From a virus: DNA of 24,442 nt. Positions 1 through 20,371 of the stretch are shown here, in pieces. How positions within the stretch are numbered: the first letter of the stretch is position 1; each line of letters opens with the position of its first letter. The notes under the pieces were generated by a model. The model had not been told where the DNA came from and made no database searches. It was given only the letters and a program-made list of their open reading frames with translations. Location: UHGV virus genome UHGV-1686243; one strand, given 5' to 3'. A program made the position numbers and the translations under genes.

Positions 1-1
1 C

Positions 2-1447
2 TTTGTTGTTAATGGAAACTGGACAGCGTGGAGTCAGGTTGTTGTTTCCGGATGGGGTCAGGATGTAAGTGTTAAGTCTCTTAGTGCCGTGGCTCTTAGT
101 GGATCTTTGACAGGTAATGCATCCACCGCCACAAAACTGCAAACAGCACGCACAATCGGCGGAGTGTCGTTCGATGGTAGTGCCAATATCGACCTGCCGG
201 GCGTGAATAAAGCAGGTAATCAGAGCACTACCGGCAATGCTGCAACCGCTACGAAACTGCAAACAGCACGCACAATAGGTGGAGTGTCATTCGATGGTAG
301 TGCCAATATCGACCTGCCTGGCGTGAATAAAGCAGGTAATCAGAGCACTACCGGCAATGCTGCAACTGCAACAAAACTGCAAACAGCACGCACAATAGGC
401 GGAGTGTCATTCGATGGTAGTGCCAATATCGACCTGCCGGGCGTGAATAAAGCAGGTAATCAGAGCACTACCGGTAATGCCGCAACCGCAACGAAACTAC
501 AGACTACACGCACAATCGGCGGCGTGTCGTTCGATGGTAGTGCCAATATCGACCTGCCTGGCGTGAATAAAGCAGGTAATCAGAGCACTACCGGCAATGC
601 TGCAACTGCAACAAAACTGCAAACAGCACGCACAATAGGCGGAGTGTCATTCGATGGTAGTGCCAATATCGACCTGCCGGGCGTGAATAAAGCAGGTAAT
701 CAGAGCACTACCGGCAATGCTGCAACCGCAACGAAACTACAGACTGCACGCACTATCAACGGTGTTAAGTTTGATGGTTCTGCAAATATTACTTTAACTG
801 CTGCTAACCTTGGCCTGAGCGATTCAAGCGGATATGTTGGGCGTTTGGTGAATACCCTGGTTTTCACGTCATCAGGTACGTACACCCCGACGCCAGGAAT
901 AAAACGGATCAGGGTCACAATAACGGGCGGCGGTGGCGGAGGGGGCGGCTGCAAGGCTATATCCAATAATGAAACGTTTTTCGGTGCTGGCGGTGGGGCC
1001 GGTGGAACAATAATTTCAATAATGACCCCGACACAGAATAGTTATCCAGTCACTATCGGCGCAGGTGGGGCCGGTGGTGTTGGTGCGACGAACGGCACCA
1101 GTGGCGGGAATAGCGTATTCGCATCGTTAATTGCTCCTGGTGGCTCAGGCGGCGGAAAGTCAGGAGTCACAAACACAAACGGTGGTAACGGCGGTGTGCC
1201 GAGTACTGGCGATATCCGCATCACTGGTGGACATGGAGGCGACGGTCAGTCCGGAAATATCGGCGTCAGCGGTGAAGGCGGAACATCGTACTGGGGCGGC
1301 GGTGGACGTGCAGGCGCTGGCGGTGGTGTTATCGGTAAAGCATATGGTTCAGGCGGAGGTGGCGCATACGATGCCGGTTATAGCGGAACCAGTATGACGG
1401 GCGGGAAAGGCGCTTCAGGGATTTGTATTATCGAGGAGTTTGCATAA
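2..1447 (+). CDS. tail-fibre protein, 5'-truncated by the window edge (40-aa tandem repeats plus Gly-rich distal domain)
   Basis: The frame is open from nt 2 (no stop) to TAA at 1445-1447, so the gene starts upstream of the window. It has five and a half copies of ...TATKLQTARTIGGVSFDGSANIDLPGVNKAGNQST..., which resembles the phage tail-fibre repeat motif, followed by a GGGxGG-rich C-terminal region. A Tfa-type chaperone gene follows immediately. Confidence 0.8.
   Translation, partial: FVVNGNWTAWSQVVVSGWGQDVSVKSLSAVALSGSLTGNASTATKLQTARTIGGVSFDGSANIDLPGVNKAGNQSTTGNAATATKLQTARTIGGVSFDGSANIDLPGVNKAGNQSTTGNAATATKLQTARTIGGVSFDGSANIDLPGVNKAGNQSTTGNAATATKLQTTRTIGGVSFDGSANIDLPGVNKAGNQSTTGNAATATKLQTARTIGGVSFDGSANIDLPGVNKAGNQSTTGNAATATKLQTARTINGVKFDGSANITLTAANLGLSDSSGYVGRLVNTLVFTSSGTYTPTPGIKRIRVTITGGGGGGGGCKAISNNETFFGAGGGAGGTIISIMTPTQNSYPVTIGAGGAGGVGATNGTSGGNSVFASLIAPGGSGGGKSGVTNTNGGNGGVPSTGDIRITGGHGGDGQSGNIGVSGEGGTSYWGGGGRAGAGGGVIGKAYGSGGGGAYDAGYSGTSMTGGKGASGICIIEEFA
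113..790 (+). repeat. in-frame tandem array of five near-identical 120-bp units plus a diverged partial sixth
   Basis: Units start at 113, 233, 353, 473 and 593; the copy at 713 diverges after about 40 bp. Units differ at only a few positions, visible directly in the sequence. Confidence 0.9.
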
Positions 1448-1857
1448 TGAATACGTCATATGCAGTTATTGAAAATGGGATGGTTGTGAATGTCATTGTC
1501 TGGGATGGCGAGGCTGAATTCACAGTGCCGGATAATCAGCAGCTCATTAATATTTCTGATATCAGTGAGCAGCCCGGAATCGGCTGGGTGTATTCAGACG
1601 GGGGATTTACTGCACCACCCACTCCGGAACGTTCTCATGATGAACTGGTAGCTGACGCTGAACAGAAAAAACAGTCGCTGATTGATACCGCAATGGCTTC
1701 CATTAGTCTTATTCAACTGAAATTACAGGCCGGACGGAATCTTACGCAGGCTGAAACCACCCGTCTTAACGCTGTGTTGGATTATATCGATGCGGTGACC
1801 GCAACGGATACCAGCACTGCACCAGATGTCAATTGGCCAGCGTTCCCGGAGGCGTAG
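1447..1857 (+). CDS. tail-fibre assembly protein (Tfa / gpU-like chaperone)
   Basis: ATG at 1447 overlaps the fibre stop (TAATG). The protein is 136 aa. The C-terminus (...LNAVLDYIDAVTATDTSTAPDVNWPAFPEA) resembles the conserved end of P2 G / Mu U / lambda Tfa-type chaperones. Position directly after the fibre gene fits. Confidence 0.75.
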   Translation: MNTSYAVIENGMVVNVIVWDGEAEFTVPDNQQLINISDISEQPGIGWVYSDGGFTAPPTPERSHDELVADAEQKKQSLIDTAMASISLIQLKLQAGRNLTQAETTRLNAVLDYIDAVTATDTSTAPDVNWPAFPEA

Positions 1858-1864
1858 CCCATTA

Positions 1865-2148
1865 AAAAAATATCTGGAGCGCTGGAAGTAACGACTGGTT
1901 CCAGTGCATCCAGATAAGATGATTACTGTTCATGCTTCAAGAGCGAGCGCATACTGCATCCAGGCCAATCTAACTTTCATTCGACCAGAGTGTCACCTCT
2001 CAAAAGCATTTTTTAACTCTGGTCGTTCAGCTTTTTTGCCGCTCGCCTTATCCTCAAAAATTAGCTCACATCCTGCGCTTTCAAGGGCATTTCGTTGCAA
2101 AGCGGTGTTTTGGTCATTTGTTGATATGCGAATGTATCCAATAAGCAT
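1865..2148 (-). pseudogene. remnant of a Cin/Gin/Hin-family serine DNA invertase (frameshift, nonsense codon, internal and 3' deletions)
   Basis: Minus-strand ATG at 2148 gives MLIGYIRISTNDQNTALQRNALESAGCELIFEDKASGKKAERPELKNAFER-stop (stop at 1995-1993). This matches the invertase N-terminus as recalled for Gin (MLIGYVRVSTNDQNTDLQRNAL...), including the catalytic-Ser region. Further matches continue in the -1 frame (GDTLV, then KLD-W-PG-CSM with TGA where W is expected, then TSSAP-DIFLMG), and the remnant ends against the tfa stop. Confidence 0.75.
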
Positions 2149-2251
2149 ATGTCTCCCTTGTATGCTAAGGATACGATTCTAGAAGATGTCCTGTAAGGAA
2201 ATAACAAACTGACTAAGTTAGTGGCGCATTAGATGTTATTTCTGGAGGGGT

Positions 2252-2578
2252 ATGTTTGCAGATTATGAAAATCTGGCTGTAGTAGTCATAACATCCCTAC
2301 TAAGTGGAACCGGCGTATTCCTTCTCGGAGTCAGAGACGGGCGCATTTCTGCGTCCCTGCTCAATCTTGCGAGTGAATTGTTTACTGCGGTAACAGCCGG
2401 GCTTGCGGGGTATGGGGTGGCGGTTAGCCAAGAATGGCCTGAAGGTATCATTTTCTGCGTTGTTCTGATTGCCAGTAACAACGGAAGAGAAATTTTACAG
2501 GGCTTGAAGTCCAGAGCTAGTAACGTCTTGAATCTCTTAAGCGTAATAGCGAATGGGGGAAAAGGTGGAGAGAAATAA
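2252..2578 (+). CDS. holin-like small membrane protein (position and size of P1 LydA)
   Basis: RBS GGAGGGG sits 2 nt upstream of ATG 2252. The 108-aa protein has three hydrophobic segments and a charged C-terminus (...GGKGGEK). The next gene starts at its stop codon (TAATG). Confidence 0.5.
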   Translation: MFADYENLAVVVITSLLSGTGVFLLGVRDGRISASLLNLASELFTAVTAGLAGYGVAVSQEWPEGIIFCVVLIASNNGREILQGLKSRASNVLNLLSVIANGGKGGEK

Positions 2579-3024
2579 TGGGTAACTTTGGGAATTATTT
2601 CATTTTTATCATGGCATTTGTTGCCATCATTGACCGTTTCATTTTTCGTCGCAAGAGTGTTGAGATTTTGAGTATTGGTGACGCTGTAGTGAAAGAATCC
2701 GCTATAGCGTTTCCTGTTTCGCTACGTGTTAAGCGAAGCTGGGTCAGCAATGCTCAAATCGAATATTGGTTGCAAGACCTGAAAAATCCATCTGTGGTTA
2801 TTTCAGGGAAAACGCGACCAGTTGACGCCTCAAAACGCGGTGAGAGAGAAGAGTATTTGCTCATCGATACGAAATATCTTGAGCCAACGAAGTGGGATCT
2901 GAAAGTCACATTGACTAACGGTAACTGCCGACTGAATCCGCTTTATCGCATTTTCCCTATCAATGACTGCATAGAGCGCCAGTTTACGATCGAAAAGCGT
3001 GAAGGAGACTGGGATGTCAAATAA
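2578..3024 (+). CDS. N-terminally membrane-anchored lysis-accessory protein (LydB-like position, putative)
   Basis: ATG overlaps the upstream stop, with RBS GGTGGAG. The 148-aa protein has one N-terminal hydrophobic helix (NYFIFIMAFVAIIDRFIF). Function is inferred only from synteny with the holin-like gene. Confidence 0.35.
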   Translation: MGNFGNYFIFIMAFVAIIDRFIFRRKSVEILSIGDAVVKESAIAFPVSLRVKRSWVSNAQIEYWLQDLKNPSVVISGKTRPVDASKRGEREEYLLIDTKYLEPTKWDLKVTLTNGNCRLNPLYRIFPINDCIERQFTIEKREGDWDVK

Positions 3025-11386: not shown

Positions 11387-11736
11387 TTAATTTGCTGTTT
11401 CTAAATCGGAATGTATGATCTGCATCATCGACTGAAATCATCCATTGCTGAAATTTTTAGTTGATCTTCCATGTTTTCAGGCTTATATTCATGTCGTCGT
11501 AGCAAATTCTGCGACCGGGTTTAGCAGCCTGAATACGAATGCGGACAACCGCAGATATCCGATATTGCGGTATTTTTGTGTCCGTAAAACCACGTTACGC
11601 CCGAATTATGGTGGGGCGTGATGGGGAGGCTTCGGCCTGCTGGTTTCATTCGTGCCAGTCTGCTAACCCCGTCACGTCCTGCCACCCGTTTAGCAGCGGG
11701 GCGCAGGTTGTTAAACCTACGAATGAGGCCGTAACT

Positions 11737-13534: not shown

Positions 13535-16500
13535 TTGGACAAACTACTTCATTCAATCAGTGAAGCCTCCAGCTTAGGCGAACTGATTGAAATTGTTAGT
13601 CGGTTGCATAAATTACGTGCTGTTGCGACCTTTGGCGTCAGGAAAGCCGATGGCGTCAGTATTCAGAAAACACGCCGGGCAGCAAACAATGCCGCAGTAA
13701 ATCTTCTTAATTCCCTTCCGCCCGGCTTCGATGGGGCGAAATTAACTGACAAACAACGTCAGATTCTTGCTGGGTATACCGGTGAAGGCGGCCTGACAGA
13801 TGGTGAGGGCAGCCAATACGAATACTACACGCCACAGTTTATGGCTGAAGGTATATGGGATCTGTTTGCTGACTACGGTATTGATGGCGGGCACGTACTG
13901 GAACCATCAGCGGGCACAGGTATTTTCCAGGAGACAAAACGGCAGGGCATGATAATGACCAGCGCCGAACTGTCTCCGATTTCCGGTCGAATAAACCAGC
14001 TTTTGCACCCGGAAGACGATGTGAATATCGGGGCGTTTGAGGCGCTGGCAGCGAAAGACGCAATGTATGATCACGCTGTTGGTAACGTACCGTTTGGTGA
14101 AGGGCGTTCCGGTGTCGCCGGGCTTGATCCGGCATATGCAAACGAGAAGAACGTTGGCAATTACTTTGTGCTGCGCACGATCGACAAGGTTAAGCCTGGT
14201 GGGCTTATCGTATTGGTGGTGCCAAATGGCATGACCGATGGTACGAAATATAAAAAATTGCGCGATAAAGTCAGCCGTAAAGCGGAATTTTTGGGCGCAC
14301 ATCGTATGCCTTCCGGTACGTTCAGCGAATCCGGTACAGATACCGTGGTGGACGTATGGGTATTGCGTAAACACCCGGAAACCTTCCTGGAGATGATCCC
14401 CGACACGGATGATTCAACACTCAAATCGGCAAACGTCCTTTGGGATACCTTCCTCAAAGGAAAATGGTTTACAACCGAAGGGAAGCGATTTGTTTACGGC
14501 GACATGGAACGTACCAGCTTCCGCAATACCCTGGTGGTGAAAAAAGACGGTCGTGTATCCAATGAGTCGATGAAAACCGCGCTATCTCGTCGCTTTGATA
14601 GTCGCATCAATTGGGATTTGCTCGGCGTAACTACTCAGGCATGGCAGGGCGCGAAAGTGGGCGATAAACGCCTTGTAGGCGGTATCTGGCATGAGTTTGA
14701 TGGTCTGAAATGGGTTAAGGACACGACAACCAAATCCTCCGCGCTTGATGTAAGTCGATATGGTGTTTCGACGTTTGGCGATCTGCAGATCGCGTTTCAG
14801 TCAACAAATGGCATTCTGGCTTTGTCATGGGACCAGATATCGGCGATCGCGTCTGACTATCCATCGGTTGTCAGTGATGAAGTGGCAGCAATGATTCGCT
14901 TTGCTGGCAAGCAGCGAGAAAAAGACAGGGAGCGCGTTATGCGCGGTGCACTGATAGGTCAGTTGATCAACAAGGCACTTGATTTGCGTAACCTGGGGGT
15001 GAACGTTGATGACAAACTGGCAGATGCATCCCGCCTGGCGGCAGCAGAAGTTGCGAAGTATGGACCACCGCACGCGATTAAGCTGAATGGGCTTGCTGAA
15101 GCTGGCGCTAAAAACTGGATGACGTTCACTGGCAATGTGAAACAGGATGGTTCCACTTCTGACCTTCTGGCAGGGCGACTTGATGTAACGGATGGTGCTG
15201 CCGGTATTGACTTTACGCGTCCTGAACAAGTGATAGCACATCTTTTTAGTGATGTAGCCCTTAATCCTATAACGCTGGGCGACTTTCGTGAGGCGTTTGC
15301 TGGTGAACTGCCAGAGGACGACGACGCGGCCCTTGAATACCTGGCGAAATTTGATGATATCGCTATTGATGGGTATGGCTGTCTGCTGCCGATGGACCGC
15401 GCCACCAGCGGCGATGTTGCAACCAAAACAGCACTGCTGGTGGGCTGGCGTGATGCGTCAACAGGTGAGCAGAAAGCGAACTTTGAGCGTCAGTTGGCGA
15501 AAATCGAAGAGAAACGTATTTTCACGCCACTAAATAAAGTCACCGTTAATCTGAATGCCCGCTGGCTGGATCGCCGCTTGATAAAAGAGTTCCTGGCAGA
15601 GCAGGGCTATGACGAGTTTAAGTACACTGAACCTGATCTGAAGGTCGTCGATGGCATTCTGGTATCTCCGGACGATTACGAAGGTAAGGACGGTGTATTT
15701 ACCGGCTATCAGCTACGAACCGTAAACGGCAAAAACGGGAATGAGTTCAAGAAGGCCAACAATAAAGACGGCTTCCTGAACCAGTTAGAAAACTACCTGA
15801 ACGGTGTTAAACCGCGTGGGCAGAACGCTAACGAGTACCTGGATAAAATTGCTCAACTGGAAGTTAGCTTTAACGACTGGTTACGCACCCACCCGCAGGC
15901 GGATCAGATAGCCCGTGACTATAACGACGCATTCAATGGTTTCATTCCGTTCACACATTCTGACGCACCGCTAGGCCTGGAAGGGATTAGTGGAAAGCGC
16001 ATTCCTCTGACTTATCAGAATGAAGAAGTTCGCCGCTTGTCAGAAGATGGGCGTGGCATCATGGGATTTGGTACCGGGCTGGGTAAAACCACGACCGCGC
16101 TTGCGCTTGAGGCGTATAACTTCGAAACAGGTCGCACTAAACGCACGTGTATTGTTGTTCCGAAGGCGGTTTATCAGAACTGGTATCACGAGGCACAGAG
16201 TTTCTACAGTGCTGATGCCTTCGCCAATATGATGTTTATCGGTTTGGATGAAGTTCGTGATGACGGCGGAAATATTCTTACCGCGCCAGTGCTTGATGAA
16301 AATGGCGAACCACGCCTCGACAGTAACGGGCAGCCTCTTACCAGAAATGTTGTGAAAGAGTCCGCCAGCGCCGTTATCGTTCAGCGCATGAACATGATCC
16401 CGTCGTCAAATTGGCGAACGGTCATCATGACAAAAGAACAATTCGCGTCTATCCCGCTACGAGAAAAAACCATCGAGGAGAACTCACAGCAAGCTGTCTT

Positions 16501-19500
16501 TAATGCTGTGGAAATGGGGCGTCTTGACCTGGCGTCCGGTAAACACCGTGATGCGCAGAAGAAGAACAAGATTAAGGATCAGGCCGCGAATACCGGTACA
16601 ACGAAGAAGCAGAATATCCCGTACTTTGAGGATATGAACTTCGATAGCGTGATTGCCGACGAGGGGCATAACTACCGCAACTCCTTTAATGCCGGGCGTG
16701 AAGCGGGACAACTGGCATATTTGCCTAACCCGGCAGTATCCAAGATGGCCCGCGACATGGCTGTAAAAGCTGCGTACATGATGAAACGCAACAACGGGCG
16801 TGGTGTAGTCATGCTGACGGCAACTCCGCTGGTGAACAGTCCGATTGATGCCTTCAACATGCTGTCTACTGTCATTCCGCAGGAAGAGTGGATGCGCATG
16901 GGCATCATTACGCCTGATGATTTCGTTCGTGTGTTTGGCAAAACAGCCACAGTTCAGGTCCAGAAAATTTCCGGGGAAGTGGAAGAGAAGCAGGGGCTGG
17001 TGGGCTTCCAGAACCTTGACGGCCTGCGTGGTATTTTCCATCGTTGGACCACTCTGAAGACTGCTGCAGATGTCGGAGCGACGGTTAAAATTCCAGACAT
17101 CATCGAGAACACCTTGCAGATCCCGATGACAGGGGAGCAGGAGACTGCTTATGAAGAGCTTCGTAAGCGTGCTCAGGAGTTAAGTCGCAATGATGAGCTG
17201 ACAGTCGATGAAAACGGGCATATCACTAACGACAAACCGGATGATTTCATCTTCTCCATCATCCGCGACATGGACAAGGTTGCTATAGACCCGGATCTGT
17301 ATGCCAGTGCGATTACATTCCAGTTCCCCGTTGAGCTTGCAGACCAGGTAAAAGCTATTGCTGATGCCTTGCCAAAAGTAGCTGGCGGTAAAGTGGCAGA
17401 TGATGTTGATGAGGCCGAGGAAGACGGCGCTGGCGGGCTGGTCAGTACGCGTACCAGCAAGGTAGTGAAGACCGCTTTTAGTGAACATCCGACGCATGTT
17501 GAAATACGTGCCAGCATTGAACTGGAAGCTGAAATACTGAAGGCCATTGCGGCTGCCGGTATTGATATGCAGCAGGTATCGCACCCCATCCCGCCGAAGT
17601 ATGCCGCGCTGATCGAAAATCTTCGTGAAGGTCTGAAGAACGGTAAGCAGATCGTCTTTATTGATGAAAAAGCCCAGCACCAGAAGCTGCGCCGTATTAT
17701 CGCCAGTGCACTGCAAATGCCGGAGCAGGAGATTGGCATTATCAATGCGACGACAGTTAGCCAGGCTGGCGGCATCAAGCTGAAGAAGGTGAATAAGCCG
17801 ACCGAACCTACTCCAAACAAAAACGGTGAATACAAAGAAGGGGCATGGGAAACCTACTACAGCAAACTTGCACAATATGAGGATTATCTCTCAGCTAAAA
17901 ATGATGCTGGCCTTGAGGGCATGGAAGGTATTGCCGCCGACTATAACGAAGGTCGCACGCGCATCATAATCTGTAACAAGAAGGCTGAAGTAGGTATTAA
18001 CCTGCACATCGGGACAACCGATATCCATCACCTGACACTACCCTGGACACCAGCCAGTATCGACCAACGAAATGGGCGCGGTGCGCGCGTAGGTTCACCG
18101 CAAGAAAAGGTCAATGTTCACTACTATTGTGGCAAAGGCACATTCGACGACTTCCGTCTGGATACGCTGAAACGTAAGAAAGACTGGATCAAGATGGTGA
18201 TGACATCCGACATGTCAGAGATCGCCAATGGTGATGCGGATGATGCTGATGAACGCGCCATTATGCTGGCGGCAAACCCGGAAGAACGCCGCGCAATCAT
18301 GGCTCGCCAGGCGCAAGAGCGTGAAGAACGTCTGAAACTGAAAGCACAGCGCGAGGCCAACAATGCTCTCGATATCTACCTGAAAGCGGCAAACGCCGCC
18401 GGAAAAGATATCGGCATGATGGAGACAGAACTGAAAAGCGCGATGGAACAGATAGAGCATTACCAGCGCAATCTTGACGACCTGATAAAAGCGGGTACGA
18501 ACAGGAATGGGCAAAAATACGCGCTTGAGCAGTTGAGTAGCTACAGAAAACGTGCGCGGGTGCTGAAGTTTGCGATCACCAGGGCAAAAGACGCGGATAC
18601 CATAATGAAACGCTCTCGTGGTGATGTGGAGCGCGCTATTAAGTCTGGTGTGCTGGATATCAGTATCGATGTTATTCAGAACCCACAGGAATATATGCGC
18701 ACTGACAAGAATATCCTGTTGCATAAAGGTAGTTATTACCGTGCAGTCATTGATGATCGCGAAACAACAGCGATTGTCCGGGTGGAAAAAATTGACGGTG
18801 AAAAAGCACAATACCTCTGCCGTATCGCCTGGCTGGATAGAGCAAGTCGTTACGCTCGAGCACCGGGGTCAATCGTTACATTGCCGTTTGACTCTGTGAT
18901 TGAAGCGGTAACTTTTGAAGAGGGGGTTGCTGAATCGCGCGCAACGGCTGCGCGTGGTGTTCAGTGCCACCAGCTATCAACAATACTTACTCGCGATCAG
19001 TTCTATGATGCTATTCGCAATGGGGTAATGAATGTTATTGCTGGTAAACCTGGTAATGCATGGGGCGGTGGGTCAGCTATTAAATACTGGGCATATCGCA
19101 CAGATGATGGTCAGATCGCGCTGTCATCGGCCTATGATGGCGTGATAGGCCAAAAAATCGGGCGAGCATCGGATATAGCACCTGAGCGATGGATATATCC
19201 TGATGGCAACGACGAGGCGCTGAAGCGTGAAGTGGCAAAAATACAAGCCAGTGATAACCCGCTGAATATCGTGGACGGCGAGGGATTCCTCCAGGCATTG
19301 TATGGGTATGATTACACCCAGGGAATGCAGGCATGGGGCGCACAGGCAACGATGGATGATGTTGCCCAGGAGTTCGAAAACTGGATGGCTGGGCGTGGTC
19401 TGTCAGGTCGTTCGCTTAATAAAGTCACTTCTGAAGATATTCTTAGCTTGTTCCGCAAACCGTCCGGAGAAGGTCTGGAATCATTCTGGAGGACCGTGCT

Positions 19501-20371
19501 GGCATACCGTTTATTCCAGGGCAGGATGAAAGCCTTTAGCAATATCGATGATATTGAACGGATGTTTAATCAGGTCAAGATCGCGAAAATTAAGGCGAAG
19601 ATCGAAAAAACACGTTCTGCGCTGGTGGCCTGGCGCGATGCATTGTTTGAGCAATATAAATCACTCAGTGATGCAGATGGATGGGCGGCATTGGAACAGC
19701 TGGCGAATAATGGGGTAGATGGAGCGAAACTCGCCATTGTTCAGGCTGATAACCCCCTGGAATCACCGGCAGCACAGTGGATTAAGGTGGGGGCTGTCAT
19801 CAATGCATTTGATGAAAAACACATTAGTAAGGACGATTTTGCTGATGCTGTTTCTGTTAATCGCCTGGTAGAAATGGCTACCCGCCGCGCACGTGAGTTG
19901 AAAGACGGCGACTATGTGAATGAGTTGCCGGATACGCTCAAATCGGCAACGTGGCAGGACTATGTATCGCTGAAAAACGGCGGGGCCACTGAATCAGAGA
20001 TCGCGGAAAGGCTTGAGCAGGCTGAAAGCAAAAGAGAAGAGCAGGCGGCAGTGGCTGAAGCCAGAGCTGATGAAGCGGCGAATGATGACTATATCATTGT
20101 GGTTAATGATAAGCCGATTCGCGCTAAGGCGCGTGTTCGCGGGCGCTGGTGGAGCGTCAGCGAGGACGTTGGCGCGGTTTATCTCATTGCCGACCAACCA
20201 GGTTCCTCGACAATACGGAACGCCAAAGACGCGATTAAGAAGATTGGCGGGCGTTTCTGGAATTTTGAAGCAAACCCGGTTGCTGATGTGAACTTTGACC
20301 GTCCTGCATGGATGGTATCTACGCGTTACTCGGTAGATGAACTGCGTAAAATAATCGCCGATGCGGCCTAA
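13535..20371 (+). CDS. darB: DarB-like giant anti-restriction protein: N6-adenine methyltransferase fused to an SF2 (DExH/SNF2-like) helicase
   Basis: TTG start 7 nt after a strong AGGGGG RBS. 2,278 aa. MTase motif I VLEPSAGTGIF and motif IV-like GNVPFGE; helicase motifs GFGTGLGKTTTALAL (I), VIADEGHNYRN (II), VMLTATPLVNS (III), IDQRNGRGARVG (VI). Size and architecture match recalled P1 DarB (about 2,255 aa). The gene symbol is assigned by architecture and synteny, not by alignment. Confidence 0.7.
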   Translation: MDKLLHSISEASSLGELIEIVSRLHKLRAVATFGVRKADGVSIQKTRRAANNAAVNLLNSLPPGFDGAKLTDKQRQILAGYTGEGGLTDGEGSQYEYYTPQFMAEGIWDLFADYGIDGGHVLEPSAGTGIFQETKRQGMIMTSAELSPISGRINQLLHPEDDVNIGAFEALAAKDAMYDHAVGNVPFGEGRSGVAGLDPAYANEKNVGNYFVLRTIDKVKPGGLIVLVVPNGMTDGTKYKKLRDKVSRKAEFLGAHRMPSGTFSESGTDTVVDVWVLRKHPETFLEMIPDTDDSTLKSANVLWDTFLKGKWFTTEGKRFVYGDMERTSFRNTLVVKKDGRVSNESMKTALSRRFDSRINWDLLGVTTQAWQGAKVGDKRLVGGIWHEFDGLKWVKDTTTKSSALDVSRYGVSTFGDLQIAFQSTNGILALSWDQISAIASDYPSVVSDEVAAMIRFAGKQREKDRERVMRGALIGQLINKALDLRNLGVNVDDKLADASRLAAAEVAKYGPPHAIKLNGLAEAGAKNWMTFTGNVKQDGSTSDLLAGRLDVTDGAAGIDFTRPEQVIAHLFSDVALNPITLGDFREAFAGELPEDDDAALEYLAKFDDIAIDGYGCLLPMDRATSGDVATKTALLVGWRDASTGEQKANFERQLAKIEEKRIFTPLNKVTVNLNARWLDRRLIKEFLAEQGYDEFKYTEPDLKVVDGILVSPDDYEGKDGVFTGYQLRTVNGKNGNEFKKANNKDGFLNQLENYLNGVKPRGQNANEYLDKIAQLEVSFNDWLRTHPQADQIARDYNDAFNGFIPFTHSDAPLGLEGISGKRIPLTYQNEEVRRLSEDGRGIMGFGTGLGKTTTALALEAYNFETGRTKRTCIVVPKAVYQNWYHEAQSFYSADAFANMMFIGLDEVRDDGGNILTAPVLDENGEPRLDSNGQPLTRNVVKESASAVIVQRMNMIPSSNWRTVIMTKEQFASIPLREKTIEENSQQAVFNAVEMGRLDLASGKHRDAQKKNKIKDQAANTGTTKKQNIPYFEDMNFDSVIADEGHNYRNSFNAGREAGQLAYLPNPAVSKMARDMAVKAAYMMKRNNGRGVVMLTATPLVNSPIDAFNMLSTVIPQEEWMRMGIITPDDFVRVFGKTATVQVQKISGEVEEKQGLVGFQNLDGLRGIFHRWTTLKTAADVGATVKIPDIIENTLQIPMTGEQETAYEELRKRAQELSRNDELTVDENGHITNDKPDDFIFSIIRDMDKVAIDPDLYASAITFQFPVELADQVKAIADALPKVAGGKVADDVDEAEEDGAGGLVSTRTSKVVKTAFSEHPTHVEIRASIELEAEILKAIAAAGIDMQQVSHPIPPKYAALIENLREGLKNGKQIVFIDEKAQHQKLRRIIASALQMPEQEIGIINATTVSQAGGIKLKKVNKPTEPTPNKNGEYKEGAWETYYSKLAQYEDYLSAKNDAGLEGMEGIAADYNEGRTRIIICNKKAEVGINLHIGTTDIHHLTLPWTPASIDQRNGRGARVGSPQEKVNVHYYCGKGTFDDFRLDTLKRKKDWIKMVMTSDMSEIANGDADDADERAIMLAANPEERRAIMARQAQEREERLKLKAQREANNALDIYLKAANAAGKDIGMMETELKSAMEQIEHYQRNLDDLIKAGTNRNGQKYALEQLSSYRKRARVLKFAITRAKDADTIMKRSRGDVERAIKSGVLDISIDVIQNPQEYMRTDKNILLHKGSYYRAVIDDRETTAIVRVEKIDGEKAQYLCRIAWLDRASRYARAPGSIVTLPFDSVIEAVTFEEGVAESRATAARGVQCHQLSTILTRDQFYDAIRNGVMNVIAGKPGNAWGGGSAIKYWAYRTDDGQIALSSAYDGVIGQKIGRASDIAPERWIYPDGNDEALKREVAKIQASDNPLNIVDGEGFLQALYGYDYTQGMQAWGAQATMDDVAQEFENWMAGRGLSGRSLNKVTSEDILSLFRKPSGEGLESFWRTVLAYRLFQGRMKAFSNIDDIERMFNQVKIAKIKAKIEKTRSALVAWRDALFEQYKSLSDADGWAALEQLANNGVDGAKLAIVQADNPLESPAAQWIKVGAVINAFDEKHISKDDFADAVSVNRLVEMATRRARELKDGDYVNELPDTLKSATWQDYVSLKNGGATESEIAERLEQAESKREEQAAVAEARADEAANDDYIIVVNDKPIRAKARVRGRWWSVSEDVGAVYLIADQPGSSTIRNAKDAIKKIGGRFWNFEANPVADVNFDRPAWMVSTRYSVDELRKIIADAA

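Follow-up and report, generated by a model that had tools for sequence, protein, structure and literature searches.

Is the invertase-like sequence beside the tail-fibre genes of the virus genome UHGV-1686243 part of a working host-range switch or the remains of one, and, if the latter, how was the switch lost? We analysed a stretch of 24,442 nt of this genome (hereafter the window), in which an initial annotation had marked positions 1865-2148 as one fossil of a Cin/Gin/Hin-type serine invertase. An invertase stub does lie there, but the interval covers three things: the stub, a vestige of a second tail-fibre assembly gene and a short filler (Table 1). The feature is very probably an inactive relic of cin in a P1/D6-like phage-plasmid that lost its C segment by deletion and was left with one fibre, the stub itself being neutral but acting as a crossover point.

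Table 1. Features of the fibre-lysis region, in window coordinates.
Feature	Position	Strand	Evidence
Tail-fibre gene S, 3' (variable) part	1-1447	+	Open from base 2; Pfam Gly_rich_2 PF21722, E=1.9e-13
tfa, tail-fibre assembly chaperone (U-like), 136 aa	1447-1857	+	Pfam Caudo_TAP PF02413, E=2.8e-22
Vestigial C-terminus of a convergent tfa' (KP12/500465-1 type)	1858-1916	-	DNA and amino acid similarity
Filler of ~30 nt at the deletion junction	1917-1947		Matches same-junction records only
cin pseudogene stub, nt 1-212 of a 561-nt invertase gene	1948-2148	-	blastn to cin of D6 and P1
TGA in place of conserved Trp61	1977-1979	-	Second tblastn HSP
51-aa ORF: in-frame Cin residues 1-46 (with nucleophile Ser9), then 5 residues out of frame	1993-2148	-	tblastn, Pfam, Gin structures
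11-bp deletion (cin nt 140-150), frameshift	2009-2010	-	DNA alignments
Sequence homologue of the Fis-dependent recombinational enhancer, within the 5' part of cin	2059-2130	-	Enhancer annotated in P1 (cin nt 19-90)
cin-lydA intergenic region, D6-type	2149-2251		Near-identical to D6; divergent promoters predicted by homology
lydA holin and lydB antagonist	2252-3024	+	Pfam LydB E=1e-24; LydA holin weak match; D6 annotation

The locus and its phage-plasmid backbone

A megablast search with window positions 1400-2700 yielded 94.8% identity to Escherichia phage D6 from position 1948 rightward, where the matched D6 features are annotated as 'DNA invertase', holin and holin antagonist, and 98-99.5% identity over the full piece to E. 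coli plasmids of about 90 kb. D6 has its genes in the order R, S (containing cixR), U, U', S', cixL, cin, lydA, lydB, hdf, darA, ddrA, ddrB, portal. The window reads S-tfa-(cin stub)-lydA-lydB-hdf-darA, and to the right of cin its order is that of D6, with lydA and lydB as the first backbone genes. The closest complete relative is p1_035148, a D6-like plasmid of 89,248 bp carrying RepB, ParM and glnS; nearly the full length of the window aligns to it at 95-98% identity. Judged by synteny and DNA identity across the tail-fibre, lysis and anti-restriction region, the window is assigned to a P1/D6-like phage-plasmid, as a piece starting within the variable part of S.

In the P1 record, the interval equivalent to the cin-lydA intergenic region carries the annotated cin promoters and the late promoter LPdar. 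A consensus scan of window positions 1800-2300 returned two promoter-like sites, where chance would give 0.9, and one terminator-like site, where it would give 0.2; these matches were given no weight. A tRNA scan of the entire window found none. Two further comparisons with p1_035148 concern the remote parts of the window. At window positions 11435-11460, the plasmid carries about 1.5 kb more (record positions 32600-34121) that is absent from the window and overlaps a gene whose annotated product is an RNA-guided endonuclease TnpB family protein; this difference is an IS-type insertion polymorphism between the lytic replication and icd/ant regions. To the right of icd/ant, a large ORF of 2,278 aa (window positions 13535-20371) corresponds to the 'SNF2-related protein' of p1_035148 and is intact in both.

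A truncated and decayed invertase gene

The stub aligns with cin of D6 at 85.8% identity over 212 nt with one 11-nt gap, and with cin of P1 at 80.2% (blastn). The initial annotation had described the first 51 residues of its ORF as Cin-type. This holds for residues 1-46, of which 44 are identical to D6 Cin; an 11-bp deletion shifts the frame behind codon 46, so that residues 47-51 no longer follow the Cin frame and their resemblance to Gin is due to chance. At the protein level, tblastn aligns residues 1-49 with E=1e-25 to D6 Cin and E=6e-25 to P1 Cin, a similarity that goes beyond low complexity. The ORF matches the Pfam Resolvase N-terminal domain PF00239 with E=3.9e-12 and 46.9 bits, against a curated cut-off of 23.3 bits, and the match spans profile positions 2-57 of 145 only. 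Its best solved structures are those of the Mu Gin invertase (4m6f/3uj3, E=4e-18). The beginning of a resolvase-type N-terminal catalytic domain is thus present together with its serine nucleophile, Ser9 in both Cin and Gin. A second tblastn match, in a different frame, covers Cin residues 50-74 and places a stop opposite Trp61, so that the frameshift and the TGA at a conserved tryptophan, both proposed earlier, are found as described. The match of the stub to cin is real, not a product of low complexity, and the gene is beyond repair by any single-base correction.

What remains of the reading frame is also damaged at catalytic and other conserved positions. Next to the TGA, the catalytic motif D64-R65-L-G-R68 reads D-W-P-G-C; among serine recombinases, D64, R65 and R68 of Cin correspond to D67, R68 and R71 of gamma-delta resolvase. 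The glycine of the conserved RPGL motif is replaced by glutamate (G44E). Beyond codon 71, the gene has lost the rest of its catalytic domain together with the E-helix and the DNA-binding domain: the locus encodes neither a complete in-frame catalytic domain with the D-R-x-x-R arginines nor an E-helix followed by a C-terminal helix-turn-helix domain. Homology to all invertases compared ends at cin nt 212, window position 1948. Searches with the D6 and P1 Cin proteins (tblastn) found no Cin similarity beyond this point, and residues 75-186 occur nowhere in the window. The 3' truncation suggested at the outset is therefore genuine, but it does not abut the tfa stop at 1857, 90 bases (1858-1947) lying between the two; nor could we recover, in these 90 bases, the later Cin sequence that a separate internal deletion was supposed to join. 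The stub has no recombinase function.

The two sides of the frameshift have diverged unequally. Counted from the alignments, the 139 nt ahead of the frameshift show 7 differences from D6, two of them non-synonymous, and the 62 nt behind it show 12, mostly non-synonymous. The pattern fits a 5' part that is refreshed from working genes and a 3' part that drifts freely. The better preserved 5' part includes a putative counterpart of the recombinational enhancer that invertase genes carry at their 5' end, with 66 of 72 positions identical to P1 and 68 of 72 to D6. On the plus strand, a 92-aa ORF at 1904-2182 was taken as an antisense by-product of the cin stub.

One fibre tip and a locked switch

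The part of S contained in the window begins with a tandem repeat of 120 bp (40 aa), present in 5.2 copies at 125-753 with 92% matches, and continues into a glycine-rich C-terminal domain; relatives annotate the product as a tail fibre, pyocin-knob or glycine-rich protein. The window and p1_035148 are not colinear within the repeat, so these plasmids, 98% identical elsewhere, differ in the number or arrangement of its copies. The fibre tip (Sv, 797-1447) together with tfa is also found at about 88% identity on E. coli plasmids of 43.6 kb, such as L009 (NZ_CP081794.1), which have a Mu/P2-like baseplate gene set and, downstream of the cassette, an acyltransferase and not an invertase. The cassette accordingly circulates among unrelated phage types. 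The 3' half of tfa is 83-84% identical to the tfa genes of the P2-like phages KP12 and 500465-1.

An invertible segment requires two inverted crossover sites flanking alternative cassettes, and the window has no such pair. The flanks had been proposed as a place to look for cix/gix-like sites, but a loose search of the window for such palindromes gave 9 matches against 11.75 expected, which is the chance level, and the cix 20-mer has no match in the window with up to 5 mismatches. A cixR does exist in p1_035148, a relative of 95-99% identity: it lies inside S, is identical at 20 of 20 positions to cixR of P1 and D6, and is located roughly 0.3-0.4 kb upstream of the position matching the window start, which itself falls inside S. 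The 89 kb of p1_035148 contain no second cix site with up to 4 mismatches and no other homologue of Cin, and the window contains no other Cin-like sequence. With one cix site and no invertase, inversion is impossible and the segment is locked. The proposal that the switch had been lost in favour of one fibre is supported by this lone cixR and by the missing recombinase. The carriers would accordingly display a single fibre type, with a single receptor specificity and a fixed host range.

Remains of a second cassette at the deletion junction

The 90 bases between tfa and the stub are of two kinds. The first is a vestige of a tfa' gene convergent with tfa. Over 49 nt its DNA is 86% identical to Klebsiella phage KP12 (E=8e-12) and 82% identical to 500465-1, two phages in which tfa and tfa' overlap tail to tail. 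The minus strand of the vestige encodes YLDALEPVVTSSAPDI against YLDALELVDTSGAPDI in KP12 (13 of 16 aa), the frame being broken by a 4-nt insertion in an A-run. A sister allele on plasmid pEC18-3 has kept 18 further bases of the vestige. The claim that no alternative cassette separates tfa from the remnant thus applies to an intact cassette, of which the window has none; of a second, opposite fibre-tip and chaperone cassette, this vestige of about 60 nt is all that remains.

The second is the filler. It has no match in the corresponding loci of P1, D6, KP12, 500465-1 or pSBF45b, and among all PLSDB plasmids and all complete E. coli genomes it is matched by records with the same junction only. 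As these searches leave the filler unaccounted for, more than one event may have contributed to the deletion.

Shared lesions and spread of the junction

We aligned the stub of the window with those of p1_035148, RHB43-C19, pSvP1 and pEC18-3. G44E, the deletion, the TGA at codon 61, the breakpoint and the filler are common to all five alleles, which points to one old event. As aligned, the deletion measures 11 bp in the window, whereas RHB43-C19 and pSvP1 lack 10 bp and pEC18-3 lacks 12 bp. These variants go back to one deletion whose length has changed by slippage in the A-run, which in pSvP1 is one base longer than in the window. Read from the alignment, the ORF ends at 46, 50 and 51 codons among the sister alleles. 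Such variable endings speak against the retention of the ORF as a small functional protein, for example a fragment that interferes with the invertases of co-resident phages. The frame does have a start codon, a Shine-Dalgarno-like AAGGGAG, a D6-type upstream region and a preserved Ser9 region; however, its profile match stops at position 57 of 145, it lacks a dimer or E-helix and a DNA-binding domain, and G44E alters the conserved RPGL motif. We regard a protein function as very improbable.

The five alleles are mosaics. Over its first ~100 nt, the stub resembles D6 in the window and p1_035148 but P1 in RHB43-C19, pSvP1 and pEC18-3, whereas from about cin nt 126 on, derived states are common to all five. 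The right flank differs between the two backbones, with lydA following directly in the D6 type and lydC preceding lydA in the P1 type; it is of the D6 type in 8 plasmid records and of the P1 type in the rest. Since the 5' part of the stub follows the backbone and the 3' part is shared, the module has crossed backbones by homologous recombination inside the stub, at about cin nt 100-125.

This mosaic also bears on the question of whether the stub is selected for a role in cis—as a Fis-binding enhancer, as a source of divergent promoters upstream of lydA, or as a homology 'handle' for the exchange of fibre modules. Such retention is compatible with a lost invertase function. The similarity of the enhancer homologue to that of P1 agrees with it, as do the far better conservation of the 5' 100-125 nt of the stub, which follow the backbone type and so place crossovers there, and the survival of the stub through about 9% divergence of the adjoining cassette. 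Conservation of the 5' part is, however, expected from repeated recombination with intact cin without any selection; an enhancer deprived of its cix pair and invertase has no known role, and the promoters lie in the intergenic region, outside the stub. We therefore hold a selected role in cis to be improbable. A related and similarly improbable proposal is that the stub with its enhancer and the orphan cixR are maintained as boundaries of a portable 'locked fibre' module that is swapped across P1- and D6-type backbones. If this were true, the swaps would proceed by homologous recombination, or by site-specific exchange at cixR through the invertase of a co-resident prophage.

The junction is widespread. 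It is present in 44 of 48 matching PLSDB records; 47 of the 51 cassette-bearing records continue across it. Among 5,426 complete E. coli genomes, 59 (~1%) carry the junction, 57 of them on plasmids and two on chromosomes; no record of the phage collection has it. The carriers come from humans, dogs, cattle, pigs and poultry, and include plasmids of human clinical isolates; some isolates are from sewage. The chromosomal cases, such as NZ_CP097001.1 at about 499,181-499,250, suggest that a P1/D6-like element has integrated, whole or in part. Elsewhere, Escherichia phage RCS47 (FO818745.1 / NC_042128.1, ~36,586-36,797) has a cin annotated as 'site-specific recombinase Cin (part 1)', an annotation label suggesting that cin may have been disrupted independently in a further P1-like element.

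Invertible segments are easily misassembled, and an intact gene could in principle hide behind an artefact of sequencing or assembly. The missing DNA, however, amounts to 349 nt of cin together with cixL and a whole cassette, not to one base, and the identical junction with the same point lesions recurs in dozens of independent complete assemblies, which leaves the artefact a negligible probability.

An intact counterpart and the likely course of events

A comparison with related genomes for an intact invertible segment identified pSBF45b (NZ_CP067234.1), an IncY, P1-type plasmid with a complete cixR-cixL segment. Its layout comprises cixR inside S, a glycine-rich Sv, tfa, a vestige spacer, U' (537 nt), Sv' (1,584 nt), cixL and a cin of 186 aa. 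The glycine-rich Sv and tfa are about 88% identical to those of the window (88.5% for the cassette), and the same tfa' vestige stands between tfa and U'. Aligned to pSBF45b, window segments 797-1916 and 1948-2150 flank a 2,530-bp gap. The two loci thus share the cassette and the vestige, and differ in that pSBF45b retains what the window lacks: U', Sv', cixL and a full Cin, the last missing from the window in its 3' part. Together with the gene order and the cixR of p1_035148, this intact segment supports the descent from a phage with an invertible fibre segment that had been proposed from the window alone.

The events may be reconstructed as follows. The ancestor would have had a Cin-invertible C segment of the form cixR, Sv, U, U', Sv', cixL, cin, in which one cassette, the glycine-rich fibre tip with tfa, had been imported earlier from a P2-like phage along with the 60-nt tfa' vestige. 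A single deletion of ~2.5 kb, from the U' stop to cin nt 213, would then have taken out U', Sv' and cixL together with the final 349 nt of cin, with the ~30 nt of filler left in their place. The stub would have decayed afterwards through the frameshifting 10-12-bp deletion, the stop at Trp61 and the substitution of catalytic arginines, and would persist as neutral DNA, its homology to intact cin having offered the crossover point by which the locked fibre module moved between P1-type and D6-type backbones. Both the order of these events and the neutrality of the stub are the most probable reading of the alignments.

The cassette complicates this order. The cassette of pSBF45b shares 97% identity with its counterparts in RHB43-C19 and pSvP1, both locked plasmids, and only 88.5% with that of the window. 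Cassette identities are thus incongruent with the junction, which implies recombination within the cassette too and blurs the order of events. A simple tree with the locked alleles as a clade and pSBF45b as the outgroup is for this reason not claimed. The same incongruence, along with the P2-like origin of a cassette that brought its own tfa' vestige and a filler that is left unexplained, would suit a replacement in one step, whereby one illegitimate event put a foreign Sv-tfa cassette in place of the whole stretch between cixR and cin nt 213, segments of the pSBF45b type having arisen separately. We find this unlikely: pSBF45b has the form expected of a precursor, with the same cassette and vestige joined to U' in an intact segment, and its derivation from the locked form would need a precise illegitimate insertion. 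Deletion from a segment resembling that of pSBF45b remains the preferred account.

Relation to known inversion systems

The closest known system is the Cin-driven C segment of P1 and D6. The window shares with it the locus and the order of S, U/tfa, cin and the lyd lysis genes, as well as a presumptive enhancer homologue, and the cixR of its relatives is identical. It differs in a cin that is truncated at codon 71, frameshifted and stopped, and in the loss of cixL, U' and Sv'; the fibre tip, being glycine-rich, is unrelated to Sv of P1. In terms of function, the locus corresponds to the P1 Cin/C-segment system after loss of function—a homologous remnant and not an active invertase or an invertible segment. 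To the Gin/G-segment system of Mu, the likeness consists in the match of the 51-aa ORF to Gin structures. The P2-like phages KP12 and 500465-1 resemble the window in the 3' end of tfa and the tfa' vestige, 83-86% identical, and their tfa and tfa' adjoin an invertase. Their system, however, is complete and its invertase lies on the other strand relative to the cassette; this invertase shows only 82% identity to the stub, over the first 101 nt.

This very allele is already in the literature. Venturini et al. 2019 (PMC6906374) described the partial invertase ORF of pSvP1 as the N-catalytic domain of P1 Cin, and noted that no complete C segment is present in the P1-like plasmids they studied, from which the tail switch has presumably been lost. 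pSvP1 (NZ_MN510446.1) has the same tfa-vestige-filler-stub junction and the same lesions as the window. The two differ in the backbone, P1-type with lydC against D6-type, and in the first 100 nt of the stub accordingly. Other work has listed lydC-cin-Sv'-U'-U-S as a hypervariable region of P1-like plasmids. The feature is genuine and ordinary. Added here are its exact anatomy, an intact comparator, a single origin with spread over two backbone types, and a figure for its prevalence.

The tfa-vestige-filler-stub junction provides a clean marker for one widespread fibre-module lineage in the P1/D6-like plasmids of E. coli. That this lineage has one fibre bears on its predicted host range and transduction range, and has little consequence beyond annotation otherwise. 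The lesions shared across two backbone types present dead gene stubs as crossover points for the exchange of modules.
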